Positions 3,713-55,214 of a stretch of DNA of 64,000 bases are shown here, piece after piece. The stretch is taken from contig JAVZHQ010000001.1 of the NCBI GenBank assembly GCA_038998335.1, positions 672,609-736,608 on the forward strand, in the 5' to 3' direction. A program made the position numbers and the translations under genes. Origin of the DNA: Candidatus Aenigmatarchaeota archaeon (GTDB taxonomy: Archaea > Aenigmatarchaeota > Aenigmatarchaeia > CG10238-14 > SCSR01). Each line of letters starts with the position of its first letter. Position 1 is the first letter of the stretch. The notes beneath the pieces were generated by a model that worked only from the letters and a program-made list of their open reading frames with translations, ran no database searches and was not told where the DNA came from.

Positions 3713-3791
3713 TAAATACACACCCTGTGTTAGTTATTGAAATACTGTTAAACTTATTTTAATTTAGAGAAATATCTTTAAAAGCTTTTTC

Positions 3792-6700
3792 TTAATAGTA
3801 GTATTCTTCTTCTGGTTTTTTCCAGAGTTTTATCTTAAGATAACCAAACTTCCATAAAACTATGAAAATTCCAGCAACTACCCCAACAACCACTAAGATT
3901 ATTAAAATTGTTGAAAAGTCTGATGATGGTTTTATAAACCTTTGAAGTAATTCGTCTACAATTTGCCTTAAAGTTTGATACCTCCTATTAGCTTCATTAT
4001 ACTTTGATAAAGCAGTTGAATAATCTCCTTGATTTAGAGCATTCTTGGCTTCATTCAATAAGTTTTTAATTTGGCCGAGCTCTGACCATAATGTTGAGTT
4101 AACTTTATCTCCCAAACTTTCCATATCCTTTTCTAAGGAGCTTACTCTTGAGGTAAGGTTATTTATTTTGCTTTCCAATTCTTTTTGGGTTTGAGGACAA
4201 TCTTGAGAACAAGTTATTTCTTCACCAGGTTCACAAATTTTATTACCACAATAAAATCCTGGACAATCAGAGCAGCTCGGATAACTTTCTCCTTCTTCAC
4301 AGATTCCATTATTGTTGCATGTAACTGAAGGACAATCTCTTGGGCAAGTTGTTCTATTCTCGTCTATATTGCAAACGCCGTCACCACAATAACAATCTTT
4401 TGGACAAGAAGTTGAATTTTCTTCTACATCGCATACCCCATTTCCACATTTTTGCTCTACGCATAAGTTTAACGCTCTGTCACAAACTTTTCCTGTAGGA
4501 CAACCACAATCTAAACAACAATTATCTTTGTTTTCTCCTTTTGAAGATTCACACTTTCCATCCCCGCAAGAAGGTAAAATAGAAGTTACTTTTACTTTTA
4601 AACTTACTGTTTTTATCCCAGCATCACTTTCTATTCTAACATAACCTTCATATTCTCCTGTTCTAAACAAAGTGCCGATTATAGAATAAGTTTTTGATTT
4701 TGAAGGTTGAATAGTATCAGTACCATAAAAGTTTGTACTTGTGTTTTCCACTCCATAAACTTCTATGCTGTAAATAGTTACTGCTACCTTTCCGTTGTTT
4801 GTTAAAGTAATCTTTTGTTCAAACCTTTGACCAGAGACTGCTACAATTGAAATTTCTAAAGGCGAGACAGAAATTTTTGGTGTTTCTTTTATTGAAATAG
4901 AAACTGGTATGCTTATTGTTTTTCCAGCATATTTTACAAAAATTTTTCCGTTGAAATTCTTTTCACCGATTTCAAAAGTTAAAGAAACATTTTGGCTTTC
5001 ACCAACTTTAAGTTCTCTCTCAAAACTTATGCTGGTAAATTGTTTGATTTCATCTGAAGCTTCTACAAGCAAATCAGTTATATCGGAATTACCGATATTT
5101 TTTAAAGTTATGTTTGTTTTAAAAGTTTTATTTGGGTAGGATTCGCCAGAAATTGCTGAAGGAGTAACGTTAAGTAAAAAGTTTGGCTTTTCAAGACCGA
5201 AAGCTAGAACTTTTCCTCCTGTTGATTTACCACTAGCCAAAATCTCAACAAAAAATTGATCTAAATCTAAGCCAATAATTTCTGCCTGAAAATTTGTGCC
5301 ATAGTTTGTGAAATCTCCTTGTTTATATAAAGACAGATCGAAAACTTTCCATACTCTGTAACTAAGGTTTGCGTTTTGATCGCTAGAGGAAACCAATAAA
5401 GCTAATCTTTTTTGGTCTTTGTTCCAATCAGTTTGCTTCACATCTATAATAATTTCTCCAGGGACTATCAGTCCGTCCATTCTTTCAACAAGATTGTTGC
5501 TGACAACTTCTCTTGCGCTAATTTTAACTCCGGAAATTTGTATATTGTCAAATGGGATGTTATAGCTTTTTGGTAATTTTTCATTTATCACCCAGAACTT
5601 TCCGACATTAAGGTAAAGATTTGGAAAATAAGAAAAAGAGTATTGAGTTGTTGTATATCCTGGATAAGTGTAAAGAAAAGAAGTGGTAGAAGGTGTTAGA
5701 GGATTTCCAGATGAATCTTTTACATCAAGAAAAAGAAAAAATTCTTTTTCCTTGGTTGGCCATTCAGGTAAAAGTTTCCAGTTGATTGAATAGCTACCAT
5801 AATTTTCGTTAAGGATGTTTAAACCATAAGCAAAAACAAAAATTGAAGCGTTAAGGCTTGGTGGACTAGCTGAAACTTCGTAAGTATAAACACCAAGCTT
5901 TTCAGGAGCAACAAAACAAGTTTGGTTTATACAAACTGAGCCTGAAAAAGTGCAAGTACACATGAGATTGCCTGTTGAAATATCCTTTATTTTAGCTGTC
6001 TTACCTTCGCAATTATCGCCTTGAATAATTGCTTTTACTGTCTCACCCTTTCTTACTGCAGGAGTTCCTGAAAGAGTTCCTAATAATTGAAAGCTAGTAA
6101 TGTTACAAGGCAATGGTGGCAAAACTTTAACATAAGAAAAACAAGCAGTAGATTTTGGTTCTGAACCAATCTGGTACGGAATTGCAACTTTAAAGTAGGT
6201 TTCAATTTCTTTTTGAACAGTTGGATAATAACATTCTAAGCTTATTCCGTCTCTTGATAGACCTTGGTCAACTAAGTTGTCAACTGTTACTACTTCTTCT
6301 TCAAGATAATCAGCACACTGCTTATGTAGTTTATTATAAGTAATCACGCTTCTCCAAGTAATTGAAGTATCTTTTCCATTTTTCAGCTTGAGTGTAAAGT
6401 TTGCTTTTCTATCACTATAAACTGTTTTGCTAGAAGGCTCTATAACACAATAAGGTTCGTTTGGTATATCTTTAACTTCTATCTTAAATATCGGGGAGAA
6501 GACATCTCTGTTTTTATTTCTTAGGTGAATTCTGCAGGTCCAGTTTCCTGCTTTGTCGACAAATATTTTTCCTGTGTAGGTTTCTTTTATTTGATCCTCC
6601 ATAGTACTTGAAACACAAGGAGTTGACGGCCTTCCTACATAAGGATCACATTCGTCTATCCAACCTCTAACATCATTTTCATCTGGTGGAACTATACCTG

Positions 6701-8702: not shown

Positions 8703-9690
8703 TTTTAACACCAATCAAAATAATCCGATTATCATAAGAATAGTAAAATACGACATTTTTACCGTTTCTCGCTATTACCGAATTTTCACATTTTTTGCAT
8801 GGAGTTTGTGTTAATTTAGTTTTATCAACTGGTATGACAACAAATTTATTTAGGAAATTACCACAAACTTCATATTGGCAGTCGATTTTATAACCTGCAA
8901 ACTCTTTATCAAAATAATAAAGTAGTGTTAAATTTGCTCCTTCGCAGAAAGAGGATACCTCTACATATTTATTAAATTCTAAATTATCTATCGGACAATT
9001 AAAAACTTTTCTAAAAGATAATTCAGCTCTATCTTTTTCTTGAAGATTGTCTATCAAGATAGGTGGATATAAAGAATAGGTACCCATGTCTACCCATATC
9101 TTATAATTTCCATCAGTACACTTTACAACCAAGACAATAGTTGTAAAGTTTTTAATGTATGAGGAAAAATCGATAGAATGATTTTTAATTTCACAAGTAG
9201 AAAAAGATGGATATTTTTCTTTTATCTCTCTAAAAAGATAATCTAAAAAATTACTTTCTGAAACTTTTTTAAGCAAATTTGATTGGAAATCAAAAATAAA
9301 TGTCTTCAATTTATTTTCATAGACGCAATAAAATGATAATTGATATTCATTCTCGTATTCTTTTGAATCATAAAATTTACAATTTTCCAATTCTTCCCAT
9401 ACTTCTGGTTCTTCCCAAAGAAAGCTCCATCCATTCAGCTTGTAACTAATATTTCCACTTTTATACTCTGTATAGAAAGGCCTTCCGTTACAAACAAGCC
9501 AAAATTCACCATTATCGCCAAAACCATTTATTTTTTCTTTGACAATCTTACAAAATTCCAACTTTTCTTCAAGTAAATTTATCACTCTATTTCTAATATT
9601 ATTTGGAACTACTAAAAAGTACCAATAACAAATCACGATAATGACTATACCAAGTATTAAGAAAATCAAAGTTAATATCTTAATATTCAT
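8689..9690 (-). CDS. Membrane-anchored (N-terminal TM) Cys-containing extracellular protein, 333 aa, unknown function; co-transcribed with giant surface protein
   Basis: ATG start; N-terminal TM LILGIVIIVICYWYFLVV; stop overlaps start of 3792..8702 gene by 14 nt. Confidence 0.45.
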   Translation of the reverse strand: MNIKILTLIFLILGIVIIVICYWYFLVVPNNIRNRVINLLEEKLEFCKIVKEKINGFGDNGEFWLVCNGRPFYTEYKSGNISYKLNGWSFLWEEPEVWEELENCKFYDSKEYENEYQLSFYCVYENKLKTFIFDFQSNLLKKVSESNFLDYLFREIKEKYPSFSTCEIKNHSIDFSSYIKNFTTIVLVVKCTDGNYKIWVDMGTYSLYPPILIDNLQEKDRAELSFRKVFNCPIDNLEFNKYVEVSSFCEGANLTLLYYFDKEFAGYKIDCQYEVCGNFLNKFVVIPVDKTKLTQTPCKKCENSVIARNGKNVVFYYSYDNRIILIGVKNEMV

Positions 9691-11110: not shown

Positions 11111-11494
11111 TTAGCAACCACAAGCTTGTGCACATTTTTGGTAATCGGTATAACCTGCATATCTACAAACCTCATCCATAGTAACTTTTCCGTCAATTTC
11201 GCCTAAAATACCATCTATACATCTCGTGTTTGGGATTAAAGCTAGAGGAACTGTGTAATTTACATTTGACTTACCGTCAGACTTGCAATTAGTTGACCAA
11301 GCTTTACATGCTGTTTTAAAGATTGTTTCAGGATCAGAACAAGGTGGACAGCATACGATGTACCACCACCAGATAGCCCCTATAAAGAAAACTAAACATA
11401 TAACAAAAATAAAACAATAGAAAATCTTAAGAATAGTTTTTACTCTGTTGTGCAAATGAAAAGGTGCTAACCTCCACAACATTTTTGTCGGCAA
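11111..11494 (-). CDS. Cys-rich membrane-anchored protein with EF-hand-like Ca-binding loop, paralog of 11467..11781
   Basis: TM ILKIFYCFIFVICLVFFIGAIWWWYIV then CCPPCSDPE...ALIPNTRCIDGILGEIDGKVTMDEVCRYAG aligning with neighbour; N-terminus/start uncertain (28-nt overlap with upstream gene). Confidence 0.4.
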   Translation of the reverse strand: MPTKMLWRLAPFHLHNRVKTILKIFYCFIFVICLVFFIGAIWWWYIVCCPPCSDPETIFKTACKAWSTNCKSDGKSNVNYTVPLALIPNTRCIDGILGEIDGKVTMDEVCRYAGYTDYQKCAQACGC

Positions 11495-11781
11495 TCTGAT
11501 ACTCCAGCATAACTACAGGCTTCTTCCATTGTTACCTTACCATCACCATCAATATCTACACATCTTGTGTCTGGAATTAAAGCTGGAGGAACTATGTAAT
11601 CAGCTGGGTTATCCTGACAGTGGGAAGTTGCCCAACCTCTACAGGCTTGGGTAATGACATACTCTGGATCAGGGCAATGTGGGAAAAACCACAGATACCA
11701 AACAACTACTGCAAGCAAAACAACTACTGCAATTATCAGAATCACAAGATATTCAACTGGTAAAGCAATTCCTTTGCTCAT
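11467..11781 (-). CDS. Pilin-like (class III signal peptide) Cys-rich protein with canonical EF-hand/dockerin-like loop DIDGDGKVTMEE
   Basis: MSKG|IALPVEYLVILIIAVVVLLAVVVWYLWFF (KG then hydrophobic helix with Glu); C-terminal domain with 9 Cys and 12-residue DxDxDGxVxxxE loop. Confidence 0.5.
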   Translation of the reverse strand: MSKGIALPVEYLVILIIAVVVLLAVVVWYLWFFPHCPDPEYVITQACRGWATSHCQDNPADYIVPPALIPDTRCVDIDGDGKVTMEEACSYAGVSDCRQKCCGG

Positions 11782-11812
11782 AAAATAAATTTCGATTTTT
11801 TTATTCTTAAAG

Positions 11813-12277
11813 CTAAGCTTTTATTTCATAAGCTATCTCAGAAACAGTCTCGGCAGAAAAGTCAAGCATACCAGCTTGAGAATATTTTTCAGCGGAAAAT
11901 TTTAATCTTACGATAACTTTTGTCAAATCGGAATTGAAATCCAGAGAAATCTTTTCCAACTTAATTGAAGATTCTAATGGTATAGGATCAAAATTTTCGT
12001 TCAATCTTTCTAAAAAGGTTTGCCTTAAGCTATCATCGTTTTTCAAATCATCAAATGTTATGCCCATATCTGAAAGTGTTTTTTCAAAAGAAAACTTTAA
12101 AGCTTGTTTAGCGTTTAGCTTTGCAAACTCTATTTTATTTATAAGGTTGTAAACTCTAGAAACATAGTCAGAAAATTCGCATTCTTGGCTAAGCCTGCTT
12201 GCAAGGAAAAAATCAACTAAAACAAAAATTACTAGCACCACAACAAAACCAGCAAGATATTTTACGTATCCTTTCAT
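11813..12277 (-). CDS. Pilin-like protein (class III signal peptide-like N-terminus), 154 aa
   Basis: MKG|YVKYLAGFVVVLVIFVLVDFFL; in-operon position, 4-nt gap to next gene. Confidence 0.45.
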   Translation of the reverse strand: MKGYVKYLAGFVVVLVIFVLVDFFLASRLSQECEFSDYVSRVYNLINKIEFAKLNAKQALKFSFEKTLSDMGITFDDLKNDDSLRQTFLERLNENFDPIPLESSIKLEKISLDFNSDLTKVIVRLKFSAEKYSQAGMLDFSAETVSEIAYEIKA

Positions 12278-12281
12278 TCTT

Positions 12282-12833
12282 TCACCCTGTAACCAAAATT
12301 ACTTTTAACTTTTGAAGGTTTGGTAAAGTTAAAGTAGTGTATGAAGAATACCTTCCACCAAACTGAAAGTAAGTTAGCATACTTCCAAGGTTGCAAGGGT
12401 TATACTCTTTAGTTTCTATTTCAGAATTGCCAAATTCAAGGATATTCTCCTCTTCGTTTCTCACAGCAAGGTAATAATCCCTATTCGGAATGATTGTTTC
12501 CATCTTGGTTCTAATTAATTCTTCTAAATCAATTTCATTATTATCAACAACAATTCTTTTACTTTTTTCAAGAGCACCATAAGCCAAAAGCTCTTGAACT
12601 TGCTTGTTTGTTTTTGTTTCAGTTGAACCTAAAAGAGTGAACAAAGCATGGTCTGAGGTTAAAGGGGTGTGAAGCGGGCTTAAAGTAACTTTAACTGTTA
12701 CTGGAGCATGTAACCAGCCGTGAGTAAGTCCGGAAACATACTGCCAGCCCCATAAAAAGTTTGGCAAAAGCATAAGTATTATGAAGCATGTTAGTACTAC
12801 TATCGCAAAAAGAATAGCCTCAGTTACAGCCAT
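12282..12833 (-). CDS. Pilin-like / pilus-associated protein with N-terminal hydrophobic helix, 183 aa
   Basis: MAVTEAILFAIVVLTCFIILMLL N-terminus; tight operon spacing. Confidence 0.4.
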   Translation of the reverse strand: MAVTEAILFAIVVLTCFIILMLLPNFLWGWQYVSGLTHGWLHAPVTVKVTLSPLHTPLTSDHALFTLLGSTETKTNKQVQELLAYGALEKSKRIVVDNNEIDLEELIRTKMETIIPNRDYYLAVRNEEENILEFGNSEIETKEYNPCNLGSMLTYFQFGGRYSSYTTLTLPNLQKLKVILVTG

Positions 12834-12837
12834 TCCT

Positions 12838-13269
12838 CTAATAAATTCCCACCTCCATTCTTCCTTCTACAAACTTATCAGGATATTTTATTAAAACAGG
12901 GTAGGATAAAGTATCTTCTATCTCAAAACCTTTTGAGCCTATAACCCAATGGCCGTTCTCACTGTCTGTAATTTCGACATAGAAGTTTTTCTTGAAAGAA
13001 ATGCTGCAGCTAGGATTTGAATCTAGTTTGCTTTTATCAAAAACTCCACGCCAGTTATTGCCGTTTTCCTTATAAACCAAGCATTCATGATTTAAAAGAT
13101 TCTCCATCAAATCTATAAGATATCTCGCATCTTCTCTTGCCTCAAAAGTTACTTGGTATTGCATAACCCCTAACAAACAGCCTAGAATTGTCATGGTCAG
13201 AAGAAGAAAAGAAATAACTTTAAGCATAACCTCTGGTGGAATTGAAACCTGACCTTTCAGGAAAGCCAA
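12838..13269 (-). CDS. Pilin-like protein (class III signal peptide-like: KGQ then hydrophobic helix), 143 aa
   Basis: MAFLKG|QVSIPPEVMLKVISFLLLTMTILGCLLGV. Confidence 0.45.
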   Translation of the reverse strand: MAFLKGQVSIPPEVMLKVISFLLLTMTILGCLLGVMQYQVTFEAREDARYLIDLMENLLNHECLVYKENGNNWRGVFDKSKLDSNPSCSISFKKNFYVEITDSENGHWVIGSKGFEIEDTLSYPVLIKYPDKFVEGRMEVGIY

Positions 13270-13721
13270 ATTTTATCACCTTCTTTTCTTGAACTAATAA
13301 AAAGGCCTTGCTCAGTGCAATATTTGTCAAACTTTTCAACGTTGATGTAATTCGGCTTAACTATAACAAAAGTAATTTCGGAAGTTTCCTTAATAATCAT
13401 TTCAGGACCTTCACCTTCCTCTGGCTCTATTTTCACTCCACCAGGAACTTTAAACTTTACTTTTTCTTCACTTATGTTAACAGTACATTTTGATAAACCT
13501 TTAACTCTAAATTCGAAAGAAAAGTTTCCATAAAAGCTTGAAGAAGCAGAAATTAAAGAGCTTAACCTTTGAGCGTTAGCCCTTGCATCGTAAAAACCCA
13601 TGCTTGTGGCTATTCCTACTCCACCGTAAAGAATAACATAAATCAAGACTAAAGCAACTATTATTCCGCCAATGAACATCATAAAATAGGTTGTGAATAA
13701 GGAACCTTTTACCATGAGCAT
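13257..13721 (-). CDS. Pilin-like protein (class III signal peptide-like), ~154 aa from internal ATG
   Basis: Longest ORF (to 13880) overlaps upstream gene by 172 nt; internal starts ATG 13721/13715 give M(LM)VKG|SLFTTYFMMFIGGIIVALVLIYVIL immediately after the upstream stop (13709..13711). Confidence 0.45.
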   Translation of the reverse strand: MLMVKGSLFTTYFMMFIGGIIVALVLIYVILYGGVGIATSMGFYDARANAQRLSSLISASSSFYGNFSFEFRVKGLSKCTVNISEEKVKFKVPGGVKIEPEEGEGPEMIIKETSEITFVIVKPNYINVEKFDKYCTEQGLFISSRKEGDKIWLS

Positions 13722-15910
13722 TCGCCAAAATTGCTTGCCCCCATTATATTTTGAGGAATGTAAGGATAGTTTACAACCAGGTCTCTTGTTACATCTATAA
13801 ATAACCTTACAGCATTTCCTAAGAATCCGCACACTGATTTTATCTTGTCGGCATCCGGCACTAGCCCAAGAGTTAAACATTTAACTATATCCATCCAATT
13901 TAAAGCTATTTCGGTAGGTAAGAATAAACTGCAAACTATAGCTGTAATGCAATCACCAAACCAAGCAGCAGCTTCTGCACCTACATAAAAATTAACAACT
14001 CCTTCTGTAGCATAGCAGTAATTCGGAACATCCTTAAACTCTTCTGGTTTTGTTTCGTCTGTGCAAAGAATCGGTTTGACATAAACAGTATCAGGCTCAT
14101 TACCACTAACATAAAGACGTAATTTTGCAAAGCAGGGACTTACCAAATAAAATCTGGGGTTTGATGCAACCACAGAATTTCTTTCTAATTTAATATTTTT
14201 AATTCCCCTTTCTTTGCAACTTTCTGGAAGAGGAAGTCTTGTGACATGATACCCTTTTTGCAAACAAATATAACCTTCTCCACAATAAGTTCCTGTTGTT
14301 GTATAATAAGAAATTTGTTTATCCCAATAAGTTGCACCTATAGGAGTATACATGTCTTGAAAACGAAGCCAAATATAGCCATAAGGTTCTAATTTTTCTT
14401 TTACACCTTCTACAAGATGGTATAAAGTTCCTTTTTTCGCATGAAAAAGATACTTTGCTTCTTTTGGGTCATTAGGTACTTCTTTAAGGTATTCCATAAA
14501 TTTATCACCAAGAACTTCATCAGAAGATAAACCATAATTTTTTATCAAACCTAAAAGTTTAGAATCCTTTGGCATAAGCAGAACACTTCCATCATCAGCC
14601 ATATGCCTTAGCTTTTCGGCAAATTCTATCATAAATTTTTGGGCCTCTTTTTTTGAAGTAACATCAACAGGAAGACCTTCTTTCATCATAGTCTCAACAA
14701 CTTCCCAAGATAATTCTTCATCGTATTTACCAACATACTCTAATTGATTGGCAAGAGTATGCAAACCTTTACCAGCCATAGCCTCGTCCCCAAAAGCTTC
14801 ACCAATTCTTGCTTTTAAAGAATTCCAACCTTCAGAAATTCTTTCCTTGATTCTTTGTCTTAAACTATTTTCGTCTATTTCTATATCCCCACTCTCTGTA
14901 AATATAACTCCGGCTAGATTTTCTGTCCCACCACGCTCTCCAGCTAATATGTATAAAGCATCTTTTACTTCCTTCCCTTCATTTGTACTGATATCAACAA
15001 CCCATTTAACTCCAACTTTTTTAACTTTACCTTGAGTCTGTAGGTCATACATTACACTTTCGAAACCTTCGTCTGCTGTTTCTTCATAAACTCTTGAAAA
15101 TTCTTCTGCAAGCTTCATTGACCTTGAAATTCTTGCTCTTTCAGCAAGTTTTGAAACAGCTTTTGGAATAATTATACTTGCTGTCCTTAAAGCTGGATAA
15201 ACCCATGCAGCATAATAAGCACATTCTCCCAAAGTTAAATCTGTTAATGAAAGACAAACTAATGTTGTAGCTATAGTAACTTCTGCAAAATGTTTAGCCT
15301 CTGTGATGATTACTTTTCCTGCTTTAACCACTATCTTACCAGAGTCTATTAATTTTTTAATTTTTTCATGAGCTACTTTAAAAGCTTCTATTCTTCCTGC
15401 TGCTTTTCCAAATGCATCTTTTATCTTGCTATAACCTGGGCTCATTCCTAGATATAGCATATCTATAGTAAGAGTTACCATCATGTTAGAAGTCCAGGGT
15501 GTGTCTTCTGACCAAGGAATAACCAAAGCTGAAATTGGATCTTGAACTCTTACATTATTAATATAAGTTTCCCACATAGACCATGAATACGAAGGAAATT
15601 CCTCATAATAAACATAAAAGTAAGGATCTGAACCTAAGTTTGCTCCTGAAATTCCTAAGAACTGATGAGTTAAACCTTTTAATCCTGTACTTTGGGCAAG
15701 CATAAAGTTTGTGTAGGCTTCGCCATTTTGACAAGCCAGATCTAAAGCATTGTAAAGTTTTGCAAAATTTTGATCTGCTATATTTTCATAGTAATTCTGA
15801 AAAAGGAATAGATAAATTGCAAAAGCTATTCCTATAGCTATTAACAAGCCTGCCAAAAACTTTAGCATTTGAGCACTTATAGTTAAACCTTTCATTTTAT
15901 ACAACCACAA
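13709..15910 (-). CDS. Large (733 aa) protein with class III signal peptide-like N-terminus; candidate pilus tip/minor pilin-adhesin
   Basis: MWLYKMKG|LTISAQMLKFLAGLLIAIGIAFAIYLFLF then ~700 aa soluble domain with several Cys; in pilus operon. Confidence 0.5.
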   Translation of the reverse strand: MWLYKMKGLTISAQMLKFLAGLLIAIGIAFAIYLFLFQNYYENIADQNFAKLYNALDLACQNGEAYTNFMLAQSTGLKGLTHQFLGISGANLGSDPYFYVYYEEFPSYSWSMWETYINNVRVQDPISALVIPWSEDTPWTSNMMVTLTIDMLYLGMSPGYSKIKDAFGKAAGRIEAFKVAHEKIKKLIDSGKIVVKAGKVIITEAKHFAEVTIATTLVCLSLTDLTLGECAYYAAWVYPALRTASIIIPKAVSKLAERARISRSMKLAEEFSRVYEETADEGFESVMYDLQTQGKVKKVGVKWVVDISTNEGKEVKDALYILAGERGGTENLAGVIFTESGDIEIDENSLRQRIKERISEGWNSLKARIGEAFGDEAMAGKGLHTLANQLEYVGKYDEELSWEVVETMMKEGLPVDVTSKKEAQKFMIEFAEKLRHMADDGSVLLMPKDSKLLGLIKNYGLSSDEVLGDKFMEYLKEVPNDPKEAKYLFHAKKGTLYHLVEGVKEKLEPYGYIWLRFQDMYTPIGATYWDKQISYYTTTGTYCGEGYICLQKGYHVTRLPLPESCKERGIKNIKLERNSVVASNPRFYLVSPCFAKLRLYVSGNEPDTVYVKPILCTDETKPEEFKDVPNYCYATEGVVNFYVGAEAAAWFGDCITAIVCSLFLPTEIALNWMDIVKCLTLGLVPDADKIKSVCGFLGNAVRLFIDVTRDLVVNYPYIPQNIMGASNFGECSW

Positions 15911-16200
15911 TGTCTAAAAAACTCTTCTGCACTATAGCCTGCATCACTTCTTATTTGATCTAAAGAACAACCATAAACATCGTTAATCATCTTTATATCA
16001 TCCTCATCCATATCACGATCATTATCAACATCGCATCCTCTGTTCCTCAATTCCAAACATCCTAACTCAACCAAAGAACCACAACCTGTTTGAGGAGGAA
16101 AAAGGTACAAATAAGCTATTATCGAAACCAAAACTATAAGAGCAACTATAACTATTACTGCAGTGTTTACAGGTAAACTAATCCCCTTGATTTCCACCAC
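15892..16200 (-). CDS. Pilin-like Cys-rich protein with acidic EF-hand-like loop (DVDNDRDMDEDD)
   Basis: MVEIKG|ISLPVNTAVIVIVALIVLVSIIAYLYLF; C-terminal domain with 7 Cys and DxDxDxD loop. Confidence 0.45.
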   Translation of the reverse strand: MVEIKGISLPVNTAVIVIVALIVLVSIIAYLYLFPPQTGCGSLVELGCLELRNRGCDVDNDRDMDEDDIKMINDVYGCSLDQIRSDAGYSAEEFFRHCGCIK

Positions 16201-16339
16201 CTTTTATCAAATCCCAGAACAGTTTTGTAAGATCTTCAGCCCATTTTTTTCCTGCGGTTAAGAAAATTAAAGCAACAAGAAGAATTATTGCAAAAGCTAC
16301 TATCATTACCACAACTTTAAAGCTTATTTTTCCTTTCAT
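16178..16339 (-). CDS. Unannotated mini-pilin (53 aa, below ORF-track cutoff): MKGKISFKVVVMIVAFAIILLVALIFLTAGKKWAEDLTKLFWDLIKGGGNQGD
   Basis: Hand translation, ATG 16339..16337, stop TAG 16180..16178; class III-like MKG + hydrophobic helix; 3' end overlaps start of 15892..16200 in another frame. Confidence 0.4.
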   Translation of the reverse strand: MKGKISFKVVVMIVAFAIILLVALIFLTAGKKWAEDLTKLFWDLIKGGGNQGD

Positions 16340-16346
16340 CCTAATT

Positions 16347-16472
16347 CTACCCTGGTGGGTTATATCTCCACTCCCAAAAACTTGGAAGTCTTAAAACAAC
16401 AAAAACTATGACAAAAAGAATAATCGCTGCTATTATTATTCCAATTATCAGCCATAGCATATCCTCGTCCAT
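16347..16472 (-). CDS. Possible 41-aa single-TM micro-protein (MDEDMLWLIIGIIIAAIILFVIVFVVLRLPSFWEWRYNPPG)
   Basis: Hand translation only; sits between mini-pilin genes; no further support. Confidence 0.2.
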   Translation of the reverse strand: MDEDMLWLIIGIIIAAIILFVIVFVVLRLPSFWEWRYNPPG

Positions 16473-16491
16473 TATAATCCTTAATTTTTAG

Positions 16492-16683
16492 CTACAACGT
16501 GCTACAATCAAAGTTCGGATCTGAAACTTTTCTTATAAGGCATTCTATATACTTCCCCACATTAAACAAATTGCTCAAAGCTTCAGCTCCGTAACCTCTC
16601 ACATAAAGTGCAAAAACTACAATTATTAACAAAATTATAACAGTAACTACTACTGCTATTATCACGTTCATCGGTAGTTCCAT
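16492..16683 (-). CDS. Small single-TM protein (63 aa), possible minor pilin
   Basis: MELPMNVIIAVVVTVIILLIIVVFALYV; in tandem small-gene array. Confidence 0.35.
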   Translation of the reverse strand: MELPMNVIIAVVVTVIILLIIVVFALYVRGYGAEALSNLFNVGKYIECLIRKVSDPNFDCSTL

Positions 16684-16692
16684 AATTAATAT

Positions 16693-16905
16693 TTATCCTC
16701 TTGTAAATATATCGCATACGCCTGCTATAGGGTTTCCCTTACCAAAAACTTGCTCAAAAACTTGTTTACAAAGAACAACAGCACCCTCAGCTAAATTTCT
16801 TCCTGTAACTAAACTAAAAACAAGAACTGAAACTATAATAATCGCAATAATTGCTACAATTATTCCTACTATAACCTTCCAGCTTAGTTGTATAGCTCCT
16901 TTCAT
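16693..16905 (-). CDS. Mini-pilin (70 aa), class III signal peptide-like
   Basis: MKG|AIQLSWKVIVGIIVAIIAIIIVSVLVF; C-terminal CDIF motif shared with 17089..17316. Confidence 0.55.
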   Translation of the reverse strand: MKGAIQLSWKVIVGIIVAIIAIIIVSVLVFSLVTGRNLAEGAVVLCKQVFEQVFGKGNPIAGVCDIFTRG

Positions 16906-16906
16906 T

Positions 16907-17086
16907 TTACTTCCTTTCCGTGATTTTTTTCCAAAGTTCTACTAAATCCCTAATCGTAATGTTTTTAAAAAAATTAACTATCTCGTCAGAAAGTCCTGTA
17001 GTAAAAAGCAAGATTATCAAAAAAGCAGCTATAGAAGCTATTATAATCAAAAGTACTTTCCAGTTAAGCTCTATTACACCTTTCAT
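16907..17086 (-). CDS. Mini-pilin (59 aa from MKG start), class III signal peptide-like
   Basis: Internal ATG 17086 gives MKG|VIELNWKVLLIIIASIAAFLIILL; the first 30 nt are identical to the 5' end of 17089..17316; the longest ORF would overlap the upstream stop. Confidence 0.55.
   Translation of the reverse strand: MKGVIELNWKVLLIIIASIAAFLIILLFTTGLSDEIVNFFKNITIRDLVELWKKITERK
17057..17086. repeat. 30-nt segment identical to 17287..17316 (5' ends of two tandem mini-pilin genes)
   Basis: tttccagttaagctctattacacctttcat in both; encodes MKGVIELNWK. Confidence 0.7.
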
Positions 17087-17088
17087 TC

Positions 17089-17316
17089 TTATCCTTGCGG
17101 ACATTCTTGAAATATATCACAAATTCTAAGAGCACTTGCTCCATACCCCAAAAACTGCAACTTGCTAATCAAAAGCAAGCATCCTTCCCTTGCCCCTGCA
17201 CTCAAAGCACAAGTGTTAATCATTCCAAAAAGTATCAAAATAACTATTAGTAAGAGAATTATACCTGAAATTAAAAATACCAAGATTTTCCAGTTAAGCT
17301 CTATTACACCTTTCAT
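17089..17316 (-). CDS. Mini-pilin (75 aa), class III signal peptide-like
   Basis: MKG|VIELNWKILVFLISGIILLLIVILILF; ATGA overlap with upstream 43-aa gene. Confidence 0.55.
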   Translation of the reverse strand: MKGVIELNWKILVFLISGIILLLIVILILFGMINTCALSAGAREGCLLLISKLQFLGYGASALRICDIFQECPQG

Positions 17317-17444
17317 ACAAACTCAACTTTTATTGGAATTATTTTCATGTAAAAGACTGCGATGAAAACAAAAATTAAGATTATAGCCAAGCCTATAACT
17401 ATCCAAAGCAATGTTTGAACATGACTTTCTAACACACCTTTCAT
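17313..17444 (-). CDS. Unannotated mini-pilin (43 aa): MKGVLESHVQTLLWIVIGLAIILIFVFIAVFYMKIIPIKVEFV
   Basis: Hand translation; ATG 17444..17442 overlaps TGA stop of TadC/FlaJ gene (ATGA) and its own TGA overlaps next ATG (ATGA). Confidence 0.4.
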   Translation of the reverse strand: MKGVLESHVQTLLWIVIGLAIILIFVFIAVFYMKIIPIKVEFV

Positions 17445-19486
17445 CTTGGCGCACCCAAAAGCAAAACTTTTAGTATATCACCAAAAACTAAGTAAGTTAC
17501 AAACAAAACAATTACATAAACAATTGTTGAAACTAAGGTAATTTTTCCTATCAAGTTAACTTCGCCTACACGGTCTTCCCCATTTTCTATTCCGTTAACG
17601 AACATCCCTATTAAAAATGATGTTTCTATAACATAAATTCCTAATACAAGCTGGAAAATATCTGGAGAAATCCCTATTCCACCCCTCCAAAGTTTTAATA
17701 AAAAGCTTGCTGAACCAGGAACTTCAACGTTAGACATACTTCCAAACTGCAGAGAAAGAATAGCCAAAATGTTAATAACTATAACTGCCATCGCAACAGT
17801 TACTCCTGCAACCAAAGGAGCCAGGAAAAAACCTAGAAACTTCATGCTAGTTGCTGCCTCGCTTAAAATTTCCTGAATTTGTTCTTCTACTTGGTGCATC
17901 CCTTTCAAGTATCTTGAAATTGTCAAAGAACTTGTTGCAACAGCATTATAACCTTTTCTTGATGCATCAACTATTATTTTCATCACAGAGTAAATCAAAT
18001 CAGAAGGGTAAGCTTTTATAGCTCCTATCTTTTCGTCAAAAACAGATTTTTCAAAAGTCAAACCAAAGAGCTTTATGTTTCTTATTATCTTTTCGTAAAA
18101 GTTTGCTATTTCCATTTTCTTAAGGTTAAGCTTAGCCTTTTCTAGAGCAAACTCTATGGAATGGCCTGACTTAATTTGATGACCCAACTGGAATAAAGCT
18201 TCTCTGAATTCTCTTTCTAAGTTTTTAACCTTTTCTCTCAACTTGAGCTTTGGTTGACTAACCAAAAGACATGCAAAACCAATAGAAATTCCTATTCCTA
18301 AAATTATCGAAGAAGAAGAGATTGTAGGAGTTAAAGTATCAGTAATAACTTTTTTGCATTCATCAGAGCTCAGCTCTAAACCTTTAGGCTTAGAAGCGTT
18401 AAAACCAACAACCTGCCATTCTCTACAAAGAGATGAAAGTGTAGTATAATGATAAAGCATGGGTGCACCAAAAATTAAGAAGGCAAGAAGTATAGGAAAA
18501 ATTATCGTCAAGACCGAAATTTCAATTTTATTTTTTCCGATTTCTATCACTAAGCTATGGGCGCTTCCCTTTATTTGAGGCTGGGAAGTTGCTGGTGGTT
18601 TTCTTTCTAAAGTCTGATTCATTAACCAATAAAGAAGTAAAGGTAGAGCAACATCATAACCCAAAATTAAAAACCAAACGTTAAAAATTCCTTGCATAAA
18701 TATCATAACTATAGGGAAAATTATCAAAGCTATGACTGGTAGAATTATTCCTAAGGAATAGATTAGCATAACTGGCATTCTTAAGCCTAAAGCATAATGT
18801 TTCATTCTTTCAACAGTCCCGTTTAGCAAAACGTCTATTGCTTCATCAATTAAAGCAAGTCTTTGCTCACCAAGCTGGGAAGTAGAACTTTGGAGTATTT
18901 TAACAGTTTCAACAAACTCCTCGTTTTCTTTTCCCCATTTTTCAAGAAAATCGTCTAAAGCGTCATCAACAGAAAAATATCTTTGAGTTTCTAAGTCCCA
19001 AATTATTTTCTTTAAGTCTAAACCTATAACACCTCTTGAGTTTTCTGCCGCAAACCTTACCGCATTCTCTAGGTTAGAAGTTTCTCTCAAGGCAACTGCC
19101 ATGTAAAGAGTTGCCAAAATCATTTCAGTAGAAGCCCTTGCTCTTATTACTTTAACTTTTAAAAAAGGGTAATTGTACAAATAGAATAAAAAGAAAAGGA
19201 AGAGAAAAATTAAGCCAGCTAGTGCTATTGCATTTATTAAACCAAGCAATAAAAGAACAATTAAAACTGGAAAAACGATTAAGAACAAAACAGTAACTAA
19301 AGAGACTGGACCAGAAGGAGAAATGTTCAAATAGCAAAACCTTATTGCAGATTCAAACCTTTGTTCAGTTTCTTTACTTGCTCTAACCTTTAAAATTTTT
19401 TCAGCAAAGTTACAAGCTTTTTCATAAAGAGAAAGTTGTGGCTTCACGCTTTTTAAAAACTCTTGATACTCTTTTGAAATCATCAT
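17441..19486 (-). CDS. Type IV filament platform protein, TadC/FlaJ (T2SS-F) family, 681 aa
   Basis: Polytopic membrane protein with two cytoplasmic helical domains, immediately downstream of and overlapping (ATGA) the FlaI/VirB11-type ATPase; canonical operon partner. Confidence 0.7.
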   Translation of the reverse strand: MMISKEYQEFLKSVKPQLSLYEKACNFAEKILKVRASKETEQRFESAIRFCYLNISPSGPVSLVTVLFLIVFPVLIVLLLLGLINAIALAGLIFLFLFFLFYLYNYPFLKVKVIRARASTEMILATLYMAVALRETSNLENAVRFAAENSRGVIGLDLKKIIWDLETQRYFSVDDALDDFLEKWGKENEEFVETVKILQSSTSQLGEQRLALIDEAIDVLLNGTVERMKHYALGLRMPVMLIYSLGIILPVIALIIFPIVMIFMQGIFNVWFLILGYDVALPLLLYWLMNQTLERKPPATSQPQIKGSAHSLVIEIGKNKIEISVLTIIFPILLAFLIFGAPMLYHYTTLSSLCREWQVVGFNASKPKGLELSSDECKKVITDTLTPTISSSSIILGIGISIGFACLLVSQPKLKLREKVKNLEREFREALFQLGHQIKSGHSIEFALEKAKLNLKKMEIANFYEKIIRNIKLFGLTFEKSVFDEKIGAIKAYPSDLIYSVMKIIVDASRKGYNAVATSSLTISRYLKGMHQVEEQIQEILSEAATSMKFLGFFLAPLVAGVTVAMAVIVINILAILSLQFGSMSNVEVPGSASFLLKLWRGGIGISPDIFQLVLGIYVIETSFLIGMFVNGIENGEDRVGEVNLIGKITLVSTIVYVIVLFVTYLVFGDILKVLLLGAPR

Positions 19487-21723
19487 TTCAACCTAGATTT
19501 TAACCATTCCAACCATTTCTCATAAATCATCTTTGAATCCAAAGCACCAACTTCTTGCCTAACTTGCTCAGAAATTATGTGAAATGCATCGTTAGCGTCG
19601 CAAACAAAGTCTGCTTCAAGAATTTCTGGCTTGTTTAACCTTTCTGCATACTCAACTAAAGTCTGCTTAATTTTTGCTCTTAGTAAAATATTATCCCAAA
19701 CATCATCCCATCTTCCGTGCCATTCCCTTACTCTTTTAGCAATTTCGTTCAAAACATAGGATTCTCCATCTATTAAAGTATCAGTTGGTTTAAGTTTGTC
19801 TTCTTTTGCTGAGTATTGCATCAACGGAACAAAACCTCCCTCATCTAAAGGATCCTGCTTCCAATGTTTTCTCACTTCTGTTAATTCAACGACTCTTCTG
19901 AATCTATGTAAGCCATCAGGAGAGCGAAGCATGTTACAAATTGTGATTAAATCGATTGCCTTAAAGCTGGTTGGAGCTACACCCAAATCATGAACTACTC
20001 TGTCATAAACTCCGTAAGGAGACTCGCCGTGAATTGTTCCTGCAACAACATTAGCTAAAGCACCGATCCTCATTGCCTCAAAAAGAACTGTACTCTCTAC
20101 TGAGCGTACTTCTCCTACTATCAAGCAAGAATCTCCCAACCTTAAAGCAGTCCTTAAGGCTTCGTCAGCAGGTACTTCAGTTTCAACTCTTGTTATTACA
20201 GAGCGAGATTTTAGCCTTTCAATGTTATATCCTAGCTGTCTTAAATGAGATACAGGAAGCTCCAAAGTATCCTCTTGTATAATAATCCTAAACTTTCTCA
20301 TTATCTCCAAAAGTAAGGAAGAAAGTAATGAAGTTTTTCCTGAACTTCTTCCTCCTGCTATAAGAATTGCTCTTCCTCCATCAACAACAAAACTCATTAG
20401 TCCTGCGTACAAAGGATCAAACATTCTTGCCTTCAAAAACAAAGGGAATGTCCAGGGCCTTTCCCTATGCCTTCTGAAAGCAAAGGCTAAACCTTCAGGG
20501 CTTAAAGTTCTTGTTATTGCTGCAACTCTTGCCCTTCCTCCTGGAACTTCTAACTCGCAATCTAAAACTGGGTTTGCCTCGTCTAAAGGCCTACCAGAAT
20601 AAAGCCTAAAACGAGTTGCCCATGCTTCTGCATCTTCCTTAGTTGGTATTAAATTTGTTTCACATTCTTCAAAATCTGAGTGAAAAATAAAAATTGGTGT
20701 TAAGCCTATGGGTGAATTTATGTAAATGTCTTGGATTTTCTCATCGCTCAACAAAAGCTCGAGTACACCAAAACCTGCTGTGTAACGCGCTAAAAGCATT
20801 GCAAGCTCTTCAATTTCCTCTGGATTTAAATCCAAATTCATGCTTCTTCCAATTTCTCTAACCAAATCCTTTCCTATGTTGAAGAAAATTTCCCTTGCTT
20901 TTTGTGGTTCAGTAATTTCTGTTTCTGTAGGCTTATGAGCAGCTAGATAATTTTTTGTTCTGTCAAGAACCATAAACTTTTTCTCGTTTAGCTTGAATTC
21001 CGGAGGTGTTATATGGTAGAGCAGCCTAACTTTTCCTGGAACTTTGAAAATTTCAACCACAACATTTCCTGGTAAGTAGTACTTATCTAAAAGCTGACCT
21101 TCCCTTGGAGGAAGAAGCATAAAGCGAGTAAGCATAAAGTTTGGTTTTGTTAATGGATGGAAAATTTGCCTGTAAATTTTTCTATCCCCTGGTTTATAGC
21201 CTTCTAGCTTTTCTTTTGCCATTTTTATTAGCTTGCAAGAAGAAAGAATTTTTTCTATAGGCAATAAAGCATTTTCTAGGTAATGGGTATAACACTTTTT
21301 CATTTCTGGTGGAGCTTTTTCTTCGTTTATTTTTGCTGCTAAGATCATTTTTTGTAGTCTTAAATAAGCTGCAACAGGATCTTTTCTCAAAAGCTCAAGA
21401 ATTAGAAATTGCAAGGCAGAAAACCTTTTTGAGAATAAATTCTCACAACCAGGACAAACAAGTTTTTCCATGGTTAAAAACTTCTCCTCGTTTAAAATTT
21501 TGTTGTAAGCTTCTGCTATTTCTCTTAAAATTTTTACTTGCTCAAAGTCATATTCATTTTCCCTAGTTTCTGCAAGTATTATCCTTTCAACATTTTTTAC
21601 TTCTAAAAGTTTGTCTATGGTTTTTGCCATACAAGCTTGAAAATCCTCTATGCTTGAACCATAAATACAGCCCAAGCAATTTACTCTTAAAGTATTCTCC
21701 CTAAGCTCGTAATCGCAGACCAA
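19483..21723 (-). CDS. Type IV filament assembly ATPase (FlaI/TadA/VirB11/GspE superfamily) with ~300-aa N-terminal extension
   Basis: Walker A GGRSSGKTSLLSSLL; family-typical IVGEVRSVE box and ALANVVAGTIHGESPYGVYDRV His box region; start is TTG at 21723 (next ATG at ~21630). Confidence 0.85.
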   Translation of the reverse strand: MVCDYELRENTLRVNCLGCIYGSSIEDFQACMAKTIDKLLEVKNVERIILAETRENEYDFEQVKILREIAEAYNKILNEEKFLTMEKLVCPGCENLFSKRFSALQFLILELLRKDPVAAYLRLQKMILAAKINEEKAPPEMKKCYTHYLENALLPIEKILSSCKLIKMAKEKLEGYKPGDRKIYRQIFHPLTKPNFMLTRFMLLPPREGQLLDKYYLPGNVVVEIFKVPGKVRLLYHITPPEFKLNEKKFMVLDRTKNYLAAHKPTETEITEPQKAREIFFNIGKDLVREIGRSMNLDLNPEEIEELAMLLARYTAGFGVLELLLSDEKIQDIYINSPIGLTPIFIFHSDFEECETNLIPTKEDAEAWATRFRLYSGRPLDEANPVLDCELEVPGGRARVAAITRTLSPEGLAFAFRRHRERPWTFPLFLKARMFDPLYAGLMSFVVDGGRAILIAGGRSSGKTSLLSSLLLEIMRKFRIIIQEDTLELPVSHLRQLGYNIERLKSRSVITRVETEVPADEALRTALRLGDSCLIVGEVRSVESTVLFEAMRIGALANVVAGTIHGESPYGVYDRVVHDLGVAPTSFKAIDLITICNMLRSPDGLHRFRRVVELTEVRKHWKQDPLDEGGFVPLMQYSAKEDKLKPTDTLIDGESYVLNEIAKRVREWHGRWDDVWDNILLRAKIKQTLVEYAERLNKPEILEADFVCDANDAFHIISEQVRQEVGALDSKMIYEKWLEWLKSRLK

Positions 21724-26562: not shown

Positions 26563-26580
26563 CAAAACAAATTTTAAATA

Positions 26581-47406: not shown

Positions 47407-47584
47407 CATCTTCTCCTAGAATTGTTTTTCTTCCTGCATGCCTTGCTAATAAAGCTGCCTCTTTCGCTACCTCATAGACCTTTTCTTCCATAATTCTTGC
47501 AAATTCTTCCATGGCTCCTTTCGAAACCCTTTTTGCTCCTGCTTTTTTCAAAATTCTTTCAAACGGAGCTGCTGAAAAAGTCAT
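47375..47584 (-). CDS. Archaeal histone (HMf-type histone fold)
   Basis: 69 aa; ..AGAKRVSKGAMEEFARIMEE...EAALLARHAGRKTILGEDVIAAKKKF matches HMfB (AGAERVS...KLARHAGRKTIKAEDI); 32-nt convergent overlap with GT4 3' end. Confidence 0.9.
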   Translation of the reverse strand: MTFSAAPFERILKKAGAKRVSKGAMEEFARIMEEKVYEVAKEAALLARHAGRKTILGEDVIAAKKKFLS

Positions 47585-47594
47585 ATTCTCACTA

Positions 47595-49736: not shown

Positions 49737-49754
49737 AAATTATTATTCCTTCGT

Positions 49755-55206: not shown

Positions 55207-55214
55207 TGGGGGTT

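Follow-up and report, generated by a model that had tools for sequence, protein, structure and literature searches.

Organization of the locus

The window, a 64-kb stretch of DNA from a Candidatus Aenigmatarchaeota (DPANN) genome, carries a minus-strand operon whose genes follow the order FlaI/TadA-type ATPase, TadC-like platform protein, seven tiny pilin-like ORFs, one far larger ORF that we call BIG, and five or six mid-size pilin-like ORFs. The secretion ATPase (19483–21723) has a long N-terminal extension and matches FlaI/TadA with an E-value of about 1e-35, as against a weak match to BasE (E = 1e-10). The polytopic TadC/FlaJ-like platform protein (17441–19486) is matched weakly by T2SSF. 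The tiny ORFs (43–101 aa) together cover 15892–17444 (17313–17444, 17089–17316, 16907–17086, 16693–16905, 16492–16683, 16178–16339 and 15892–16197); a K-G site is present in six of the seven, the exception being 16492–16683, and these ORFs are candidates for the Flp-like major and minor pilins. Downstream of BIG, the mid-size ORFs d1–d6 (104–183 aa) cover 11111–13715 (13257–13715, 12838–13269, 12282–12833, 11813–12277, 11467–11781 and 11111–11494). None of the 13–14 predicted substrates of this pilus operon matches any curated family, and the operon contains no ABC transporter genes.

BIG occupies 13709–15895 on the minus strand, running for 728 residues from an ATG at 15895 to a stop codon at 13709–13711. 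A preliminary description of this DNA had reported a 733-residue product of 13709–15910, starting at a TTG. That minus-strand ORF is real and appears in the mechanical ORF list, but the five residues that its TTG start would add are unlikely. The ATG (MKGLTISAQ...) is the likelier choice because it overlaps the stop codon of the upstream gene as ATGA, agrees with the NCBI record (P0001) and yields the M-K-G beginning seen in orthologues and neighbors. BIG is coupled translationally on both sides, its start and stop codons overlapping pilin-like genes on the same strand. The order ATPase, TadC, tiny pilins, BIG, d1, d2 is maintained in about 15 loci, down to 26–30% identity, and d1–d4 are syntenic with BIG across the phylum. 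Each operon of this type has exactly one copy of BIG at this fixed position. The ORF list, the K-G motifs and the synteny thus all bear out the earlier placement of BIG among pilin-like genes.

The N-terminal region of BIG

Archaeal prepilins carry a charged residue at position -2 and Gly, Ala or Ser at -1, at a site near the N-terminus ahead of the H-domain (PMC4371748). By this rule the BIG N-terminus, M-K-G|LTISAQ, has a prepilin motif, as do those of its operon neighbors. The predicted leader, M-K-G (15887–15895, minus strand), would be cleaved after G3, and the N-terminal peptide of the predicted processed form is LTISAQMLK, versus MKGLTISAQMLK. We scanned the whole 64 kb for the strict form of the motif, M-x0-3-K-G at an ORF start followed by an H-domain. 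Eleven co-directional ORFs between 11467 and 17444 match, and the twelfth ORF of this block, 12282–12833, has E-A where the others have K-G. Elsewhere in the 64 kb only two ORFs match, one of which begins inside a longer ORF, so the class III-like N-terminus proposed in the preliminary description recurs in this block beyond chance expectation. In orthologues of BIG, the leaders are 3–13 residues long and invariably close with K-G (or K-A or N-G) ahead of a conserved LT(I/L)(S/T)AQxLKF. A K/R-G/A site is absent from many distant superfamily members and from a subfamily of ~890 aa, which suggests that the fold may be able to function without cleavage.

The H-domain and long α1 helix that follow (residues 4–57; 15725–15886, minus strand) form the sole true membrane segment of the protein. 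The N-terminus has a Kyte-Doolittle (KD) peak of 2.66 and a Hessa-type insertion energy (dG) of about -3.5. Every BIG segment beyond it is at +2.3 or above, and the C-terminal tail is at +5. Across 95 relatives the superfamily median is -3.2 for the N-terminal segment versus +6.5 for the tail, and the tail is non-transmembrane in 93. These energies rule out anchoring of BIG at both ends and leave no second convincing membrane segment, in agreement with the soluble region described earlier.

In profile comparisons with hhalign, the N-domain (residues 1–67) matches the neighboring d1 family with 90% probability and p43, p102 and d5 with 79–85% probability, a similarity that lies mainly in the hydrophobic helix, so that composition may inflate these scores. 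The curated pilin families (Pfam Pilin_N and Class_IIIsignal, and the NCBIfam archaeal pilin/flagellin N-terminal families) matched neither BIG nor 27 superfamily N-domains at E-values up to 0.1–1, and a profile search of the PDB with the N-domain recovered no solved pilin. Matches of this profile to Vpu and FliR in the PDB and Pfam searches were dismissed as hydrophobic-helix noise.

Two further observations count against a pilin assignment. A scan of 38 window proteins, among them every polytopic membrane protein of the window, gave no match to Peptidase_A24, and a crude regular-expression search of about 447 kb of related loci found no GxGD-type polytopic ORF. With no prepilin peptidase gene in these regions, cleavage of the leader stays a prediction. 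Archaeal pilins are commonly N-glycosylated, and BIG has no N-glycosylation sequons where about three would be expected.

Domain layout and predicted structure

Beyond α1, BIG can be divided into four regions, all on the minus strand. Residues 58–135 (15491–15724) comprise the conserved strands and motifs of the N-domain (C55..G, PQ, GDPYFYVYYE.FP and PWSED.PW), which are common to the wider superfamily. Residues 136–500 (14396–15490) form a variable, mostly α-helical middle that includes a moderately hydrophobic, conserved hairpin at 205–239 (T..C...TD..LG.C). Residues 501–640 (13976–14395) form a conserved Cys-rich β module, the hallmark of the superfamily, with C538, C544, C560, PRFYLVSPC588 and NYC627YA, and are modeled with a pLDDT of about 90. 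The protein ends in a hydrophobic, non-transmembrane helical tail, residues 641–728 (13712–13975), closing with ..CSW. We count 14 cysteines in BIG, in place of the 11 reported earlier, and every one lies C-terminal to the N-terminal helix. Eight are kept across the family (C55, C214, C225, C538, C544, C560, C588 and C627), a pattern that fits a predicted extracellular, disulfide-bonded domain.

The AF2 model that we use was computed from 30 sequences and has a pLDDT of 71.7 and a pTM of 0.47; a first model from 7 sequences (pLDDT 47.6) was discarded as unusable. It shows a helix at residues 8–57 followed by strands at 59–66, 93–97 and 108–119, with pLDDT up to 96. This order of helix and then strands is the pilin layout, and in the model it suggests a pilin fold for the N-domain. 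The protein as a whole is modeled as mostly helical with one small Cys-rich β module. Neither this model nor Foldseek shows the Ig-like or β-propeller folds that had been thought worth looking for.

Foldseek returned no significant match of the model to a pilin or to any other fold. Searches of Pfam, NCBIfam, PDB sequences and viral structures likewise gave no matches for BIG, and no enzyme fold or family matches it. The best PDB matches in Foldseek, all non-significant, are ClyA-family α-pore-forming toxins (SmhB, AhlB, ClyA and HblL1) and BipD. For the ClyA family the best E-value is 0.31, with a probability of 0.12, target-normalized TM-scores of 0.14–0.17 and rmsd of 25–40 Å. Such scores are what any long-helix model yields, and we dismissed the resemblance.

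Distribution and ectodomain replacement

A word-indexed homologue search in three runs, profiles included, found only 7 relatives of BIG, and an exhaustive profile search found 128. The family is restricted to Aenigmatarchaeota and is invariably at the same operon position; one distant member of the superfamily is again from Aenigmatarchaeota. Shorter superfamily members keep the motifs of the N-domain and the C-module without most of the helical middle, which suggests that BIG, like GspK or ComZ, may have its middle inserted into a conserved core.

Conservation is strong in the N- and C-modules. On average BIG evolves no faster than TadC or d2, the mean pairwise identities of the three being similar. 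General hypervariability of BIG is therefore rejected, and only discrete swaps are supported. One such swap involves the window itself: the tract 13725–15750 (minus strand) has a divergent allele in locus L005, and both flanks are 97–100% identical. In total, the ectodomain has been replaced in two independent locus pairs, with flanks at 99% and ~76% DNA identity, and in a third pair replacement is seen at the protein level. Where the ectodomain is exchanged between near-identical backgrounds α1 is retained, with 96% amino acid identity across the allele swap. Retention of the helix and exchange of the ectodomain would be expected if the helix must fit a machine and the head faces the surroundings of the cell.

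A possible tip subunit

From these observations we propose, with about even confidence, that BIG serves an Aenigmatarchaeota-specific type IV (Tad/Epd-like) pilus as a modular minor pilin, which would prime the pilus and cap it with a swappable binding head. Sec would insert the protein, lodging its N-terminal helix in the membrane, and a PibD/FlaK-type prepilin peptidase encoded elsewhere would cut off the short leader behind K-G. The α1 helix, 50 residues long, may then bundle with the α1 helices of the co-translated d1–d4 above the TadC platform, giving an initiation complex beneath which the ATPase would add tiny Flp-like pilins, so that BIG would become the filament cap. Its ectodomain would be too bulky for the body of the filament and would thus be displayed at the tip. 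There these ~670 residues, a predicted helical stalk and disulfide-rich β module, would act as a binding head whose target is probably a host cell or some other surface.

The chief competitor, which we hold to be rather unlikely, is that BIG is a bitopic accessory outside the filament, cleaved or not, that is fixed in the membrane and serves to anchor the filament or steer it through the envelope, in the manner of archaellum FlaF/FlaG or bacterial PilN/PilO-type proteins. The single copy at a fixed position in every such operon, the strongly conserved N- and C-modules and an average divergence similar to that of the platform protein would all suit such a part, as would the absence of the K-G site from many distant relatives; the authors of a 2026 TFF census also suggest that the cell wall may be primed for passage of a filament by some of the large adhesin-like proteins (bioRxiv 10.64898/2026.04.22.720090). 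Against it, K-G is kept throughout the clade of the window although the leaders in front of it vary in length, α1 resembles that of the neighboring pilin-like proteins, and wholesale replacement of the ectodomain is hard to square with a fit to conserved envelope partners. The leader and the synteny also bear on the idea that BIG is a generic protein of the cell surface, held by an ordinary signal anchor that stays uncleaved, and lies in the pilus locus by chance. Type II signal anchors, too, show a short M-K start ahead of a hydrophobic helix, and no peptidase gene was found nearby. The positive-inside rule alone is nevertheless insufficient to account for a Gly at position 3, or just before the mature end, that recurs in 11 ORFs of the block and behind orthologue leaders of 3–13 residues, and with synteny conserved across the phylum and start and stop codons overlapping pilin-like genes we think this reading quite improbable.

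It is also improbable that BIG is a bindosome-like passenger, borrowing a class III signal and pilus machinery for surface display in the style of the Sulfolobus sugar-binding proteins, and that its function has nothing to do with pilus assembly. BIG is several times the size of a pilin with a class III-like N-terminus, for which large archaeal class III proteins offer a precedent (PMC4371748), and the window ATPase has its weak match to BasE. That ATPase is, however, far closer to FlaI/TadA, the operon lacks ABC transporter genes, and BIG is strictly syntenic in the pilin gene row and coupled to it on both sides. Pfam and NCBIfam furthermore give BIG no homology to solute-binding proteins, the bindosome feature, and no other known domain. 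A pilus-delivered, membrane-active effector, whose helical bundle and hydrophobic hairpins (205–239 and 631–658) would insert into a host membrane and help to open a connection, in the manner of α-pore-forming toxins or the tip/translocator proteins of secretion systems, is very improbable. The attraction of this idea lies in the best, non-significant Foldseek matches to ClyA-family toxins and BipD, in the two conserved and moderately hydrophobic helical stretches beyond the N-terminus, and in the dependence of DPANN archaea on host contact (PMC11291902). Those matches, however, have E-values of at least 0.3, probabilities of at most 0.12 and TM-scores of at most 0.17 over rmsd of 25–40 Å, as for any long-helix model; the hydrophobic stretches have unfavorable insertion energies of +2.3 or more; and nothing links the source organism to a known host.

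Little is known of how DPANN archaea locate their hosts and keep hold of them, and the operon offers in BIG a concrete and testable candidate. One extension of the tip-pilin proposal, tentative and to our minds doubtful, is that BIG is the host-recognition head of a symbiont pilus, plugged into the tip by its conserved α1 and determining which host cell or surface the nano-sized archaeon can grasp, and that recombinational replacement of the head alone changes specificity, as with phage tail-fiber tips and the Tad tips of Myxococcus; if true, this would be the first exchangeable pilus tip in archaea. To our knowledge, Aenigmatarchaeota have no cultured member. If BIG is a tip subunit, it would extend to archaea the bacterial principle of modular pilins and adaptable Tad tips and would provide a marker for host-range variation in metagenomes. 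Even as an assembly accessory, it would be a new core component of an unannotated type of archaeal pilus.

Comparison with known systems

The closest parallels to a tip position for BIG are bacterial, where the bulky pilins TadG/KilN, GspK and PilB occupy the tip and also prime assembly (PMC12075869, PMC8179133). TadG/KilN are large minor pilins of Tad (type IVc) pili that form the TadE/F/G (KilL/M/N) tip complex (PMC12075869). Like BIG, they have a class III-type leader and α1 followed by a very large extra domain of long helices and a β scaffold with no PDB homologue, their genes lie beside tiny Flp-like pilins, mid-size pseudopilin-like proteins and a TadA/TadC-type motor, and their heads are variable or interchangeable with the helix retained. 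BIG differs in being archaeal and without outer-membrane parts, in matching no TadE/TadG-like N-terminal family of Pfam or NCBIfam, and in that its tip variants are allelic replacements at one locus rather than paralogous tip clusters. Modular type IV pilins and GspK-type caps (PilB/PilC of S. sanguinis, CofB/TcpB, ComZ and GspK; PMC8179133) likewise join a pilin module to a bulky effector module compatible only with the tip, and in these systems also the cap primes assembly (PMC8179133). The extra region of BIG, about 600 aa, has by comparison no recognizable domain, with vWA, lectin and β-solenoid all absent.

PilY1/PilC of bacterial type IVa pili, which the preliminary description had invoked, are also large, share their loci with minor pilins, have one conserved and one variable end, and have been proposed to act at the tip and in priming. 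PilY1 is, however, a non-pilin with a C-terminal β-propeller, whereas BIG has a pilin-type N-terminus and, by Pfam and AF2, neither a propeller nor DUF2341, so that a relationship to PilC/PilY1 does not hold.

Among archaea, the size of BIG is less notable than had been suggested, since predictions of class III signal-peptide proteins there, ranging from <150 to far more than 1000 aa, date from 2007 (reviewed in PMC4371748). Large proteins resembling adhesins have also been described in pilus loci of archaea (PMC4858521; bioRxiv 10.64898/2026.04.22.720090), and these, together with the Sulfolobus bindosome substrates (PMC4371748), resemble BIG in being large secreted or class III proteins, in being encoded within ATPase/TadC/pilin loci and in being proposed as adhesins or minor pilins. 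Those families have DUF2341/PilY-like, Ig-rich or substrate-binding domains, whereas BIG has none. Proteins of this kind, large and class III, had thus been predicted for archaeal pilus loci before; the fold and family of BIG are new. Aenigmatarchaeota are absent from both censuses of archaeal pilus loci (PMC4858521; bioRxiv 10.64898/2026.04.22.720090), and the BIG operon type, with an N-extended ATPase and a single platform gene, resembles system 2 of the latter.

Gene context and composition of BIG

The large pilin-like gene BIG is a real feature. Of the ORF originally proposed, 13709..15910 (-) encoding 733 aa, the reading frame stands but the start probably does not. The ATG at 15895 is more probable: it forms an ATGA overlap with the upstream stop, is the start in the public record and is shared by the orthologues. 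The resulting protein has 728 aa and the N-terminus MKGLTISAQMLKF. That record, from a 938,630-bp contig (P0001, 'MAG: hypothetical protein QXS48_01480 [Candidatus Aenigmatarchaeota archaeon]'), is 100% identical to BIG and uses the ATG at 15895.

BIG, which the preliminary description placed among minor-pilin genes, is flanked by tiny and mid-size pilin-like ORFs in a minus-strand row. The row opens with an ATPase of 746 aa (T2SSE; TadA-family E=1.5e-35, FlaI E=4.1e-35) and a TadC-like polytopic protein of 681 aa with a weak T2SSF match; seven tiny ORFs of 43-101 aa lie between the latter and BIG, and the mid-size d1-d6 (152, 143, 183, 154, 104 and 127 aa; 11111..13715) follow it, all on the minus strand. 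Most junctions overlap by 4-13 nt, those on BIG's two sides being -4 and -7, which points to a single translationally coupled operon. None of the small and mid-size proteins matches a curated family. The operon agrees with the description of system 2 in bioRxiv 10.64898/2026.04.22.720090, in that its ATPase is N-extended and it has just one gene for a platform protein.

Two sets of small genes in the operon have features of their own. A 43-aa ORF beginning MKG|VLESHVQTLLWIVIG... (17313-17444, -) falls under the 50-aa listing threshold, overlaps the TadC stop by 4 nt and is kept as the first tiny pilin-like gene in two related loci (L001 and L002). The gene is probably genuine and would encode a very short pilin of Flp size. 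The products of d5 (11467-11781), d6 (11111-11494) and p102 (15892-16197), all (-), are paralogue-like, with a Cys-rich head and an acidic D-x-D-G-D-G-K-V-T-x-E-E loop. This loop may be a candidate calcium-binding site in minor pilins; EF-hand matches of d5 are below threshold (E=0.007).

BIG contains 14 cysteines rather than the 11 first counted, all downstream of the N-terminal helix. Its N-X-S/T sequons number 0, against 3.0 +/- 1.5 in shuffles; G+C of the window is ~33%. An AglB/STT3 oligosaccharyltransferase gene (47595-49736, -) lies 30 kb from the operon in a glycosylation cluster (GT4, PMT-like, flippase, epimerase; 43983-57698), yet BIG is sequon-free.

The N-terminus and its putative cleavage

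BIG starts M-K-G|L and continues into a strongly hydrophobic helix, bearing out the resemblance to a prepilin leader noted in the preliminary description. When the class III rule was applied to every ORF in the window, 11 co-directional ORFs at 11467-17444 were found to begin with its strict form, M-x0-3-K-G, the 43-aa ORF among them; the 12th ORF of this block (12282-12833) has E-A instead of K-G. Elsewhere in the window the strict form occurs in only 2 ORFs, one of them starting inside a longer ORF. The other, MGKG|QTRTLVYLAIILF (24647-25276, -), is the sole full-length strict K-G ORF outside the operon and is probably not a pilin, since it has ~4 TM segments.

Leaders of BIG orthologues range from 3 to 13 residues (MKG, MKVKVKG, MPVKKIVDAKG, MIAKKGAAAKG, VKKRVGGDVVVSKG) and always end in K-G (or K-A, N-G), immediately before a conserved LT(I/L)(S/T)AQxLKF. 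Processed prepilins are classically recognized by this combination of a leader that varies, a junction that does not and a mature end that is conserved, and BIG would by this pattern be cleaved at K-G. The ~890-aa subfamily and many distant relatives lack the K/R-G/A site. No gene for an A24 prepilin peptidase was found in the window, nor did 447 kb of related loci yield one when screened with a crude motif; genes for these peptidases usually lie away from the pilus locus.

Topology and predicted structure

The N-terminal segment is the only stretch of BIG with the properties of a membrane helix (KD 2.66; Hessa-type dG -3.5). The hydrophobic patches at ~205-240 and ~640-670 fall short of this, and in the 95 relatives compared the N-terminus has a median dG of -3.2 and the C-tail one of +6.5. 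BIG is thus a single-helix protein with an outer domain of ~690 residues.

An AF2 model built from 7 sequences was poor (pLDDT 47.6). One from 30 sequences reached pLDDT 71.7 with a pTM of 0.47, at which domain packing is unreliable. It has a helix at 8-57 and strands at 59-66, 93-97 and 108-119, a predicted arrangement that resembles the general layout of pilins, in which a small sheet comes after a 50-residue helix. Residues 136-535 are mostly helical (pLDDT 80-95 in 280-490), followed by a beta module at 542-611 (pLDDT ~90) and low-confidence helices at 631-707. Profile-profile comparison related residues 1-67 of the N-domain to the d1 family with 90% probability; for p43, p102 and d5 the probabilities were 79-85%. 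Hydrophobic composition may inflate these scores. Pilins are usually related to each other through alpha-1 only.

A structure search, of the kind proposed in the preliminary description, returned only weak top PDB matches, and neither an enzyme nor a known fold. These top matches, ClyA-family pore-forming toxins, had TM-scores <=0.17 and rmsd 25-40 A and are not counted as evidence. Membership tests placed BIG outside PilY1/DUF2341, the curated pilin families, binding proteins and ClyA toxins.

A family restricted to Aenigmatarchaeota

A word-indexed search of 5.8 billion clusters returned only 7 relatives of BIG; an exhaustive profile search returned 128 at E<1e-3, 27 of them <1e-30. Conserved blocks at 1-140 (C55, PQ, GDPYFYVYYE.FP, PWSED.PW) and 500-640 (C538, C544, C560, PRFYLVSPC588, NYC627YA) lie on either side of a variable stretch, residues 160-500, and distant matches have the N-domain, the C-module or both in common. 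Since relatives of 380-540 aa keep both motif sets with a much shorter spacer, the helical middle may be an expansion within a conserved core. Pfam domains were found in 0 of 10 representative relatives.

The motif [ND]PxFYLVSPC, scanned in one genome per GTDB species, gave 24 loci: 21 labelled Candidatus Aenigmatarchaeota, 2 labelled 'uncultured archaeon' and 1 on a 'Calescibacterium' contig. This last (L015, AWOA01000066.1, with the bacterial label 'Candidatus Calescibacterium nevadense') carries an Aenigmatarchaeota-type BIG-d1-d2, with ATPase and TadC on the opposite strand, and is probably a mis-binned archaeal contig. A JGI record (P0003) of a 718-aa orthologue, 75% identical, bears the source name 'ribosomal protein L29', evidently a mis-annotation. 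The conservation across related genomes that had been proposed for checking is present: the order ATPase-TadC-tiny pilins-BIG-d1-d2(-d3-d4) recurs in ~15 loci, with BIG identity down to 26-30%.

Replacement of the exposed part

Identity to another Aenigmatarchaeota MAG (L005) falls within BIG. The neighboring p63, p53, d1 and d2 proteins are 98-100% identical, but BIG only 39% (96% over residues 1-49 and 25-53% over the remainder). DNA identity is 97-100% down to ~15750 (BIG codon ~49), 30-60% beyond, and 99-100% again from ~13725, four codons short of the stop. A second small divergent patch (16047-15961, -; 64% DNA identity vs 97-100% around it) falls in the C-terminal, Cys- and acid-rich half of p102, the 101-aa pilin-like protein directly upstream, so the mosaic extends beyond BIG.

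Against a further locus (L016) the window is 90% identical in TadC, 93% in the tiny pilin-like p75 and 37% in BIG. An independent pair (L006 and L007) has 89% in TadC, 70% in d2 and 45% in BIG, with DNA similarity lost at BIG codon ~138 and restored directly after the stop. General hypervariability is rejected, BIG evolving on average no faster than TadC or d2 (mean identity over 55 locus pairs 49.7%, 51.2% and 46.6%). As read from these alignments, the signal is discrete allelic replacement of BIG's exposed part with alpha-1 retained. L005 is a short contig, and its swap may, as a residual possibility, reflect an assembly chimera. However, independently assembled sequences (P0005, P0007 and L016) also have the divergent allele.

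Proposed role

On the best-supported reading, BIG is a modular minor pilin with two tasks, priming the pilus and capping it. This reading draws on what the analysis showed: operon membership, signal-peptide grammar, topology, conservation, the lack of an enzyme or known fold, and head swapping. We infer cleavage, partners, tip location and ligand. After processing at K-G, alpha-1 of BIG and those of d1-d4 would form a bundle on the platform; polymerisation of the tiny Flp-size pilins below BIG would then leave its bulky disulfide-rich head at the distal tip, where it would act as a binding module.

Bacteria provide the closest precedents. The TadE/F/G tip complex of Tad pili has the large pilin TadG/KilN as its backbone; this pilin carries a domain that combines long helices with a beta scaffold and has no PDB homologue, and one tip can be exchanged for another (PMC12075869). 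For modular pilins and GspK, the filament tip is the only compatible position (PMC8179133). BIG would by analogy work like TadG/KilN or a GspK-type cap; it differs from TadG in falling outside the TadG-type N-terminal family.

BIG might instead be an accessory of assembly or envelope passage outside the filament, a role that its strict single-copy conservation and its relatives lacking a K-G site would suit. The head swaps speak against this, and we regard it as possible but doubtful. A bindosome-like passenger is unlikely, BIG having neither a binding-protein fold nor transporter linkage. About as unlikely is a plain signal anchor, which would leave the conserved Gly junction unexplained, and a host-membrane-active effector, whose one basis is the non-significant fold matches, is highly improbable.

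The size of BIG, earlier considered notable for an archaeon, is not so by itself: large class III or secreted adhesin-like proteins have been predicted in archaeal pilus loci (PMC4371748; PMC4858521; bioRxiv 10.64898/2026.04.22.720090), and the kind is known. What is new in the minor pilin proposed here is a family restricted to Aenigmatarchaeota, with no detectable sequence or fold relative and absent from both censuses (PMC4858521; bioRxiv 10.64898/2026.04.22.720090), whose exposed part is replaced as a cassette.

Other genes in the window

A second TadC-like platform protein (467-2545, -; 692 aa, ~9 TM, no Pfam match) is ~31% identical to the operon TadC by tblastn against related loci, with a closer relative (36%) in locus L025. 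This second platform protein suggests a second pilus system extending past the window's left end. Adjoining the pilus operon is a giant protein of 1640 aa (3792-8714, -) with a signal peptide, many Cys-rich repeats, a C-terminal membrane anchor and CARDB/Ig-like matches below threshold; it brings to mind the S-layer-like proteins, likewise rich in Cys and anchored at the C-terminus, that have been reported from other archaeal pilus loci (PMC4858521). Between these two genes sits a free-standing LAGLIDADG homing-endonuclease-like gene with a NUMOD3 motif (2924-3721, -; E=2.4e-21). Four tandem paralogous small membrane proteins (26074-28250, +; 162-190 aa, 3-5 TM) have similar N-termini such as MADLFTPIIEQL..., and the two scanned gave no Pfam match. 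The RadA/Rad51 recombinase gene (38002-42861, -; 1619 aa) is intein-interrupted, with Intein_splicing in 3 stretches and LAGLIDADG_3 in 5.
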